Of a stretch of 64,000 bases of DNA, positions 47,559-48,769 are shown in pieces. Position numbers and translations under genes: made by a program. The first letter of the stretch is position 1; each line of letters opens with the position of its first letter. The notes beneath the pieces were generated by a model. That model saw only the letters and a program-made list of their open reading frames with translations, made no database searches and was not told the DNA's origin. Origin of the DNA: Octopus vulgaris. Lineage: Eukaryota. Where the stretch lies: the NCBI GenBank assembly GCA_951406725.2, contig OX597814.1:10168001-10232000 (forward strand), given 5' to 3'.

Positions 47559-47601
47559 GTGAACAGGTCGCGGATTTTAGCGACGAAAATATTTTGACAA
47601 A
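47559..47601 (+). ncRNA. Minimal type I hammerhead with a G3-C8 core variant (5' strand of helix I truncated)
   Basis: GTGAACA-G-GTCGC(GGATTTTA)GCGAC-GAAA-ATAT-TT-tgacaaa. The sister copy at 31221-31271 supplies the complementary 5' strand tttgtca. Confidence 0.6.
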
Positions 47602-48769
47602 TTAAACTTAAATGTTGAAGTGAATCGAACGGTTTTTGTATGTTTCTTAAATGGCTTATAAACACCTTCCACGCTGCAATTGTTTTCGTTTCAGCACACG
47701 ATCTCAGATCAAATTACTTGTTATGCGAGTACATCTCTGTAATATATATATATATATATATATATATATGTGTGTGTGTGTGTGTGTGTGTGTGTGTGTG
47801 TGTGTGTGTGTGTGTGTGTGTGTGTGTGTTTGTGTGTGTGTGTGTGTGTGTGTGTGTATGCATATGTTTGTGTGTCAGTGTTTGTTCCCACAACCTCGCT
47901 TCACAACCGGTGCTGGTGTATATAAATAATATGTATGTAATATAAATAATATAAATAAATGCATACATACATTCATATATGTACATACCTACATATATAT
48001 ATGTATACATACATGCATATGTATATATACGCCTCAAAAATAAAAACGTGAGCAAAATGAAAAACAGGAACATAAACAAACAAAAAAGTGGAAAACGAGC
48101 ATTTTGCGAACAACGATAGAAATAAATAGATAAACGAGACAGGCAACATAAAGAACAATTCCTTAATCAGTTGTCTCCCGTTTTAACTACTCCGCGTTCG
48201 AAGGTTGGGACAAGACGCGACTTCGTTAAAACAGTCGTTCCCGCAAAGCAAATGAAAAAAAATTTGGGATTTTGCATAAGGTTAAAGTGGTAACAAAAAC
48301 AGGACAGTAAGAACAAAATAGTAAAACGAAACGGTGAGGGATGTTAAGCTATAACAAGGTAAAGTGGTGAATGCTGGAGAAAGGAGCTATGACAGGAGAC
48401 AGGCAAAAGTAGGTCTTATCTTTTGTAAAGCAAGAGGAAGAAAGAACGATAGTCGCTGGTCACGTGTGAGCAACGAGAAGTCGAGAAAGAGGAAAGACAG
48501 TAAGCAGGTGTATTAGTTTAACGCTCAGGAAGAATGGAAATGTCTCTGAACCTACGCTCTTCGGCAGAAAGGATTGGGAGAGTAAAAACAACGGAGAGAG
48601 AAAAAATGAATAAGGATTAACGGTTCACTATAATGAAATGGCCCTTACATACATACATAAATTTTCAAAAACATTCAAGGATACAATAATCTGTACTTTC
48701 AGCTATAGCTCTCTAAACAATTTTAAGTGGTACACACAAATAGTGTTCGCCTAATATTATGCCCTGTGA

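Follow-up and report, generated by a model that had tools for sequence, protein, structure and literature searches.

The repeat copy that begins at position 47559 of the window (the whole 64-kb stretch of octopus DNA that was analysed) is probably, at roughly 75%, a 5'-truncated member of a G3-C8 hammerhead family, one that likely serves as the pLTR (terminal repeat) of an EN+ Penelope-like element; weak cutting is predicted for intact copies, and this copy is likely inert. We call the repeat family C and this member copy 1. That family C is a pLTR in which G3-C8 is the majority state we regard as highly probable, and measurable cleavage by an intact copy is predicted with less assurance, at somewhat better than even odds.

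A hammerhead layout with G3-C8 at 47559

The motif at 47559-47601 is laid out like a minimal type I hammerhead in which G3-C8 stands in the core and an additional G precedes helix II (Table 1). All letters of the hammerhead core (U4, G5, A6 and A9; G12, A13 and A14; the A15.1-U16.1 pair; H17) are present in it and in the family majority as well. In place of the canonical C3-G8 stands G3-C8, with which a Watson-Crick 3-8 pair is possible. Helix II is closed by G10.1-C11.1, and its strands (47567-47571/47580-47584) give -7.2 kcal/mol in copy 1. The cut is predicted to fall after U17, between 47594 and 47595. An earlier note on this DNA had described the GUGAACA core, the 5-bp helix II, GAAA, the palindromic AAUAUU and U17, and each of these was found where it had been placed; the description omitted, however, the extra G at 47566 and likewise G13 of a second copy (copy 2).

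Table 1. Family C, its hammerhead parts and the neighbouring features in the window
Feature	Position	Strand	Remark
T-box exon (host gene)	47107-47183	+	PF00907, E 1.1e-4, under the curated cut-off for so short a piece
SINE-like host repeat, 5' half	47386-47539	+	six long matches elsewhere in the window
Family C, copy 1	47559-47742	+	
Core strand G3-U4-G5-A6-A7-C8-A9 (GUGAACA)	47559-47565	+	G3 is the family majority; positions 4-9 without listed change
Extra G between A9 and G10.1	47566	+	sequence, descriptor match
Helix II, 5 bp, G10.1-C11.1 closing, 8-nt loop	47567-47584	+	GUCGC/GCGAC
G12-A13-A14-A15.1 (GAAA)	47585-47588	+	A13 is the family majority, 82-92%
Palindrome AAUAUU replacing helix III, then U17	47588-47593, 47594	+	descriptor match
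Helix I 3' strand: UGACAAA (47595-47601), likely bulge, second short segment	47595-47612	+	partner strand absent in copy 1
Start of element ORF, 31 codons, running into (TA)n	47651-47743	+	26/31 residues identical to the N-terminus of P0025
SINE-like host repeat, 3' half	47863-47919	+	3' half within about 50 bases of the 5' half in three other copies
Family C, copy 2	31092-31290	-	5' helix I strand kept (31264-31271); decayed to U3 (31263) and G13 (GGAA)
Family C, third copy	24755-24900	+	3' part only (24794-24900) behind an inverted piece of family C (24755-24793)

Copy 1 tracks the family clearly from G3 (47559) onwards, which is its 5'-truncation point, and A at 47558 also fits position 2.1. 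Helix I is present at the family level, with only 2 bp in the copy at 47559. The absence of the 5' helix I strand, seen already in the earlier note, was borne out: the copy's own flank offers these 2 bp, at best -2.0 kcal/mol. Because the strand that must precede position 3 is missing, copy 1 is likely inert.

Three different Watson-Crick 3-8 pairs had been reported in the window, and all three are there: C3-G8 (2689, minus strand), U3-A8 (36142, minus strand) and G3-C8 (47559, plus strand). They are also the three matches of a strict descriptor, compared with 0.025 matches on average in 200 block-wise dinucleotide shuffles; a looser descriptor was much less specific (7 matches versus a mean of 3.21 in 100 shuffles), and both descriptors were drawn up after the motif was known. 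Since the three pairs sit in three unrelated repeat families, they do not constitute covariation within one alignment. The U3-A8 motif occurs as a single copy in the window. The Rfam hammerhead models, which may be insensitive to minimal forms, matched neither copy 1 nor copy 2 at E<=10, and on the whole window the Rfam matches listed (150 of 383) were mainly to microsatellite-driven miRNA models.

Hammerhead-like minus-strand motifs with other core changes lie at 2085-2140, 56395-56455 and 56590-56650. CUGUAGA and CUGUGGA, in which A6 is changed to U, were seen in two copies of one repeat, and CCGACGA, with U4 changed to C, in the second copy of the family at 2689. The 9-base string GGUCUCAAA is common to the majority loop II of family C (31241-31250) and the helix II and loop of the U3-A8 motif (36108-36145); the sequences downstream of it are unrelated, and the sharing may reflect chance or shared ancestry.

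Majority state and helices of the family

The state of the family was read from the contigs of four of 24 DNA runs, mapped on copy 2 at 80% likeness. These were X1 and X2 (organism A), X3 (organism B) and X9 (organism D), with 1830, 1815, 1968 and 1168 contigs aligned to copy 2, respectively; run X1 may be the source of the window. The percentages given here are weighted by depth, which does not equal copy number, and refer to contigs at least 80% like copy 2, so that subfamilies less than 80% alike are left out.

With the U3 copy as the reference, position 3 was G in 97.8, 97.1, 97.2 and 96.9% of the depth (77, 80, 88 and 58 contigs, numbers that are not site totals). No difference of at least 5% was listed in the four runs at positions 4-9, the extra G, 10.1 and 10.2 (31254-31262) or in the 20 bases 5' of the core (31264-31283), including the 5' helix I strand. 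A13 was read in 82-92% of the depth, and G13 of copy 2 is therefore a product of decay. The U3 locus was unchanged over 31190-31312 in runs X1 and X2, so that U3 of copy 2 is not an assembly error. These results demonstrate that G3-C8 is the majority state of family C and that U3 at 31263 reflects decay. The earlier note had seen C8 in both copies, G3 at 47559 and U3 in copy 2 (31263), as we did. It had made its claim depend on a consensus that pairs positions 3 and 8, and the family majority does pair them as G-C (about 97% G3, no listed change of C8).

Copy 2 is 81% identical to copy 1 over 188 columns and is itself U3-C8. Loose ends at 31219, beside a 4-base deletion of copy 2, read the 3' arm of copy 1 in 32, 31, 39 and 23 contigs (agreement 0.67-0.77). 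Over 31092-31140 and 31188-31219 the summed depth was far above that of the hammerhead part, and loose ends at 31137 read a related but different sequence. By depth and by these loose ends, sister subfamilies share the 3' part of family C.

The 7-bp helix I that had been proposed by combining the two copies (UUUGUCA/UGACAAA) was confirmed: the 3' arm of copy 1 finds a partner in the 5' arm of copy 2, with 7 bp and, past a 4-nt bulge, 4 bp more, at -8.0 kcal/mol. When the 5' arm was shuffled 2000 times, 16 of the shuffled arms attained this value. In helix II, the two copies differ by two one-sided changes and no two-sided one in 5 pairs. Among the contigs, position 10.3 was C in 15-78% of the depth and otherwise U, which wobbles with G, 11.3 was A in 4-17%, and 11.1 was U in 10-16%; these are transitions at CpG sites, compatible with wobble pairing, and come from per-site tables that hold no linkage between sites. 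Self-pairing of the 6-nt palindrome yields only -0.2 kcal/mol, and pairing through a longer palindrome of 10 nt (-3.8) would consume A13, A14, U17 and U1.1. For copy 2, the fold predicted to be lowest in energy differs from that of a hammerhead.

The repeat and its probable link to Penelope-like elements

Family C has three copies in the window, and the hammerhead is absent from the third (24755-24900). Copy 1 was inserted into the internal microsatellite of another repeat, whose halves flank it on both sides and which we tentatively regard as SINE-like; ARAGORN called no tRNA gene that would stand behind this label. The family combines 5' truncation, an inverted 5' piece and a microsatellite target, and opposite-strand joints were seen in single contigs.

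The predicted cut lies 56 nt ahead of an ORF start. When the frame from 47651 was compared with 1.84 billion proteins, there was one match, the predicted protein P0024 of Octopus bimaculoides (E 4.8e-4). A search with P0024 found two longer proteins among 342 candidates, P0025 from O. sinensis and P0026 from O. vulgaris, which overlap each other. P0025 is a chimeric gene model with an unrelated methyltransferase piece as its tail; it aligns to the N-terminus of the 1,045-aa P0028 (E 8e-26). Residues 100-382 of P0026 matched 83 of 905 candidates (680-1204 aa). In all eight long relatives inspected, P0028 among them, DKSG and YVDD are present, as is a CX4CXXC linker followed by a GIY-YIG-like tail, and a profile built from 14 RT+GIY-YIG proteins found 20 of 40 relatives longer than 1,000 aa at E<1e-5.

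Standard models reached these proteins poorly. Pfam RVT_1 scored below its cut-off in 4 of the 14 relatives scanned, and Pfam GIY-YIG matched none of the 14. One RT match was returned by a PDB sequence search with the RT alignment (E 6.4e-4), the ESM Atlas gave a lead for P0024 (0.75) and DUF8422 clusters for P0026 (0.97), and a weak direct match to a Neptune-like protein was found (E 0.006).

The repeat thus overlaps, through the predicted proteins, the start of an RT-endonuclease ORF. Because it carries this start, family C likely represents the pLTR of a Penelope-like element with an endonuclease, the link running via predicted proteins and not along one DNA molecule. The Penelope-like connection suggested earlier for this terminus is in this way supported through the ORF start and the chain P0024/P0025/P0026. 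The element resembles the Neptune/Nematis-type EN+ elements of Craig et al. 2021 (PMC8557442) in its C-terminal GIY-YIG-like domain behind a CX4CXXC linker, as well as in its (TA)n targets, 5' truncation and inverted 5' piece. The C-terminal endonuclease argues against a Naiad. By eye, the ORFs, which are about 1,050 aa long and bear TDKSGR, PPLYGLRKDHK and RPVCGA, differ from the Nematis and Hydra rows in the supplement of PMC8557442, a supplement in which strings of family C are absent. P0027-P0109 form a large, mostly unnamed group of ORFs up to about 1,200 aa, with divergent RT motifs barely detected by Pfam; judged by these motifs, the group may represent a Penelope-like lineage that is unnamed or has been poorly sampled.

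Wider scans did not extend the family. Neither metagenomes (body 20-mer of family C) nor viral contigs (hammerhead 20-mer) gave any match, and a search of viral contigs with the RT alignment returned no relative. Two bacterial matches to the body 20-mer were limited to 21-22 bases and mark no family C locus. Of 63 metagenome loci that matched a degenerate G3-C8 pattern, none had the family body and 2 had a token helix I, and they were taken as chance.

Two further observations concern ORFs in the window. At 4892-5972 (plus strand) lies the one Penelope-like ORF remnant of the window, decayed into four broken frames; its relatives are RT+GIY-YIG proteins whose linker is of the Neptune type. It was not linked to family C; it belongs to a Neptune-like group and adjoins no family C copy. 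A possible intron of about 74 nt (47621-47694, GUGAAU ... UUUCAG) would, on removal, bring an upstream AUG into frame with the ORF of copy 1; no matching joint was listed in the DNA contigs, and P0025 reads through it.

Known hammerheads and competing readings

Minimal type I hammerheads of metazoan Penelope-like elements were described by Cervera and de la Pena 2014 (PMC4209133), where they are marked by an extra base at 9/10.1, a palindromic helix III and G10.1-C11.1. Family C shares all three marks and is also like these ribozymes in its U-rich 5' and AU-rich 3' flanks, its place in a pLTR and its mostly single, truncated copies. It is unlike them at position 3: among the 56 rows of Fig. 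S3 in PMC4209133 there are 53 with C3, 3 with U3 and none with G3, and none comes from a cephalopod. The extra base, typical of Penelope-like minimal hammerheads, has a not-G consensus and is G in 1 of those 56 rows; in family C it is G, and helix I is 7 bp or more, again unlike the described ribozymes. C3 stands in 34 of 34 rows in File S2 of PMC8557442.

U3-A8 is a natural 3-8 covariation (PMC3088659, section 8; the Schistosoma Cercyon family, PMC4209133). G3-C8 resembles it in being a compensated Watson-Crick change fixed in a repeat family. However, U3-A8 amounts to two transitions that keep the pyrimidine-purine order, whereas G3-C8 amounts to two transversions that invert it. The same core letters are known from engineered ribozymes. 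In the lizard Poseidon element PAc, whose ribozyme sits at the ORF start and needs the element's protein for cleavage, C3G or G8C alone kills the ribozyme and the C3G/G8C double mutant partly restores cleavage (PMC11167929). C3G/G8C also appears as a partly active engineered mutant in the review PMC8495972, and a remark in PMC3884650, given there without data, holds that G3-C8 is better with G than with C at position 17. Those are laboratory mutants, whereas in family C the letters are the natural family majority. In the literature searched, a text-based survey with figures and the variant survey of Lunse et al. 2017 outside its scope, G3-C8 was found only in laboratory mutants and no natural case was found.

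For family C, we propose that the master element underwent a change of both core letters. Catalysis involves the 2'-OH of a nucleotide held by the 3-8 pair. Such a role of this 2'-OH is also described in PMC8495972. G3-C8 would have been kept because 3-8 pairing, and not base identity, positions the 2'-OH of nucleotide 8. In the full-length RNA helix I would close, and the AAUAUU palindrome may form helix III between two copies, or the element's protein may assist. Weak self-cleavage after U17 is predicted for intact copies, either in a dimer or aided by the element's protein, and this cut would release the element RNA's 5' end just ahead of the ORF, 56 nt before the start codon. If the remark in PMC3884650 holds, U17 instead of C17 may avoid a G3-C17 mispairing; U17 is common in such ribozymes anyway.

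If an octopus Penelope-like lineage at high copy number does use G3-C8 as a working ribozyme, it would be the first natural G3-C8 fixed in an animal transposon family, one missed by every CUGANGA/UUGANAA descriptor. From the sequences at hand we put this forward tentatively, at slightly less than an even chance. A natural family amplified with G3-C8 would demonstrate that a cell can make do with the inverted pair, and it gives many natural variants for finding which neighbours (N7, the extra base, N17) make G3-C8 work. The descriptors quoted in PMC8557442 and in PMC4209133 are built on C3 or U3 cores, so hammerhead counts and absences in Penelope-like clades may be too low; if the reading is true, some Penelope-like groups scored as hammerhead-free may carry inverted cores. 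The concept of hammerheads and of Penelope-like elements is unchanged by the finding.

Four other explanations were weighed. In the first, family C is a pLTR, but its hammerhead lost its activity in the master lineage, G3 and C8 being neutral changes that pair by chance and multiplied along with the element. In vitro, mutants with a dead ribozyme show normal insertion (PMC11167929), so that selection for cleavage is not guaranteed and this reading stays alive; Naiads, moreover, spread without canonical hammerheads (PMC8557442), helix III is weak with competing folds, and the low variation within the family would reflect common descent and not selection. On the other hand, change in the core is confined to the two bases that pair, each altered by a transversion; U4, G5, A6, A9, G12-A15.1, U16.1 and helices I and II were kept, and laboratory ribozymes with this swap are still partly active. 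We therefore consider a dead relic unlikely, though a serious alternative to a G3-C8 ribozyme.

The second explanation, that the structure was kept for a role other than cutting, such as binding the element's protein or controlling translation at the nearby start codon, would suit its place 56 nt before the ORF start, and non-cleaving roles are left open by the authors of PMC4209133. The letters that were kept, however, are the catalytic set and not those of a generic hairpin, which makes such a role quite improbable. Still less credible is a chance look-alike or junction artefact, in which the flanking (TG/TA)n supplies G3 and positions 3 and 8 do not pair in the family. G3 is indeed the first base of copy 1, behind a microsatellite, and copy 2 has U3; but in 4/4 runs about 97% of the depth showed G3 at a site that is internal to copy 2, and 0 of 200 shuffles yielded a motif with a helix II of at least 5 bp and a palindrome of at least 6 nt. 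The contig majority of G3 refutes this explanation, unless the contigs are dominated by one collapsed subfamily.

Finally, that copy 1 cuts the intron and in this way acts on the T-box pre-mRNA of the host is barely conceivable, because the missing strand must be continuous with position 3 and the flank gives only the 2-bp helix I noted above, although the copy lies on the same strand as the gene. The sense orientation reported earlier was verified, with the exon end near 47183, 376 bases upstream; the T-box itself was confirmed by Pfam, an upstream exon within 42096-42455 matching PF00907 at E 2.9e-32. The copy in the T-box intron is likely inert and without function. At the apparent exon end (47183-47190) the sequence reads AAG|GCCAGT, with no GT at the expected place, and a GC-AG intron donor is possible there. 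Just upstream of a T-box exon, 41828-41940 (minus strand) matches an Rfam tRNA model with 50 bits and was not called by ARAGORN; by this match it is possibly an intron-containing tRNA or a tRNA-derived repeat.
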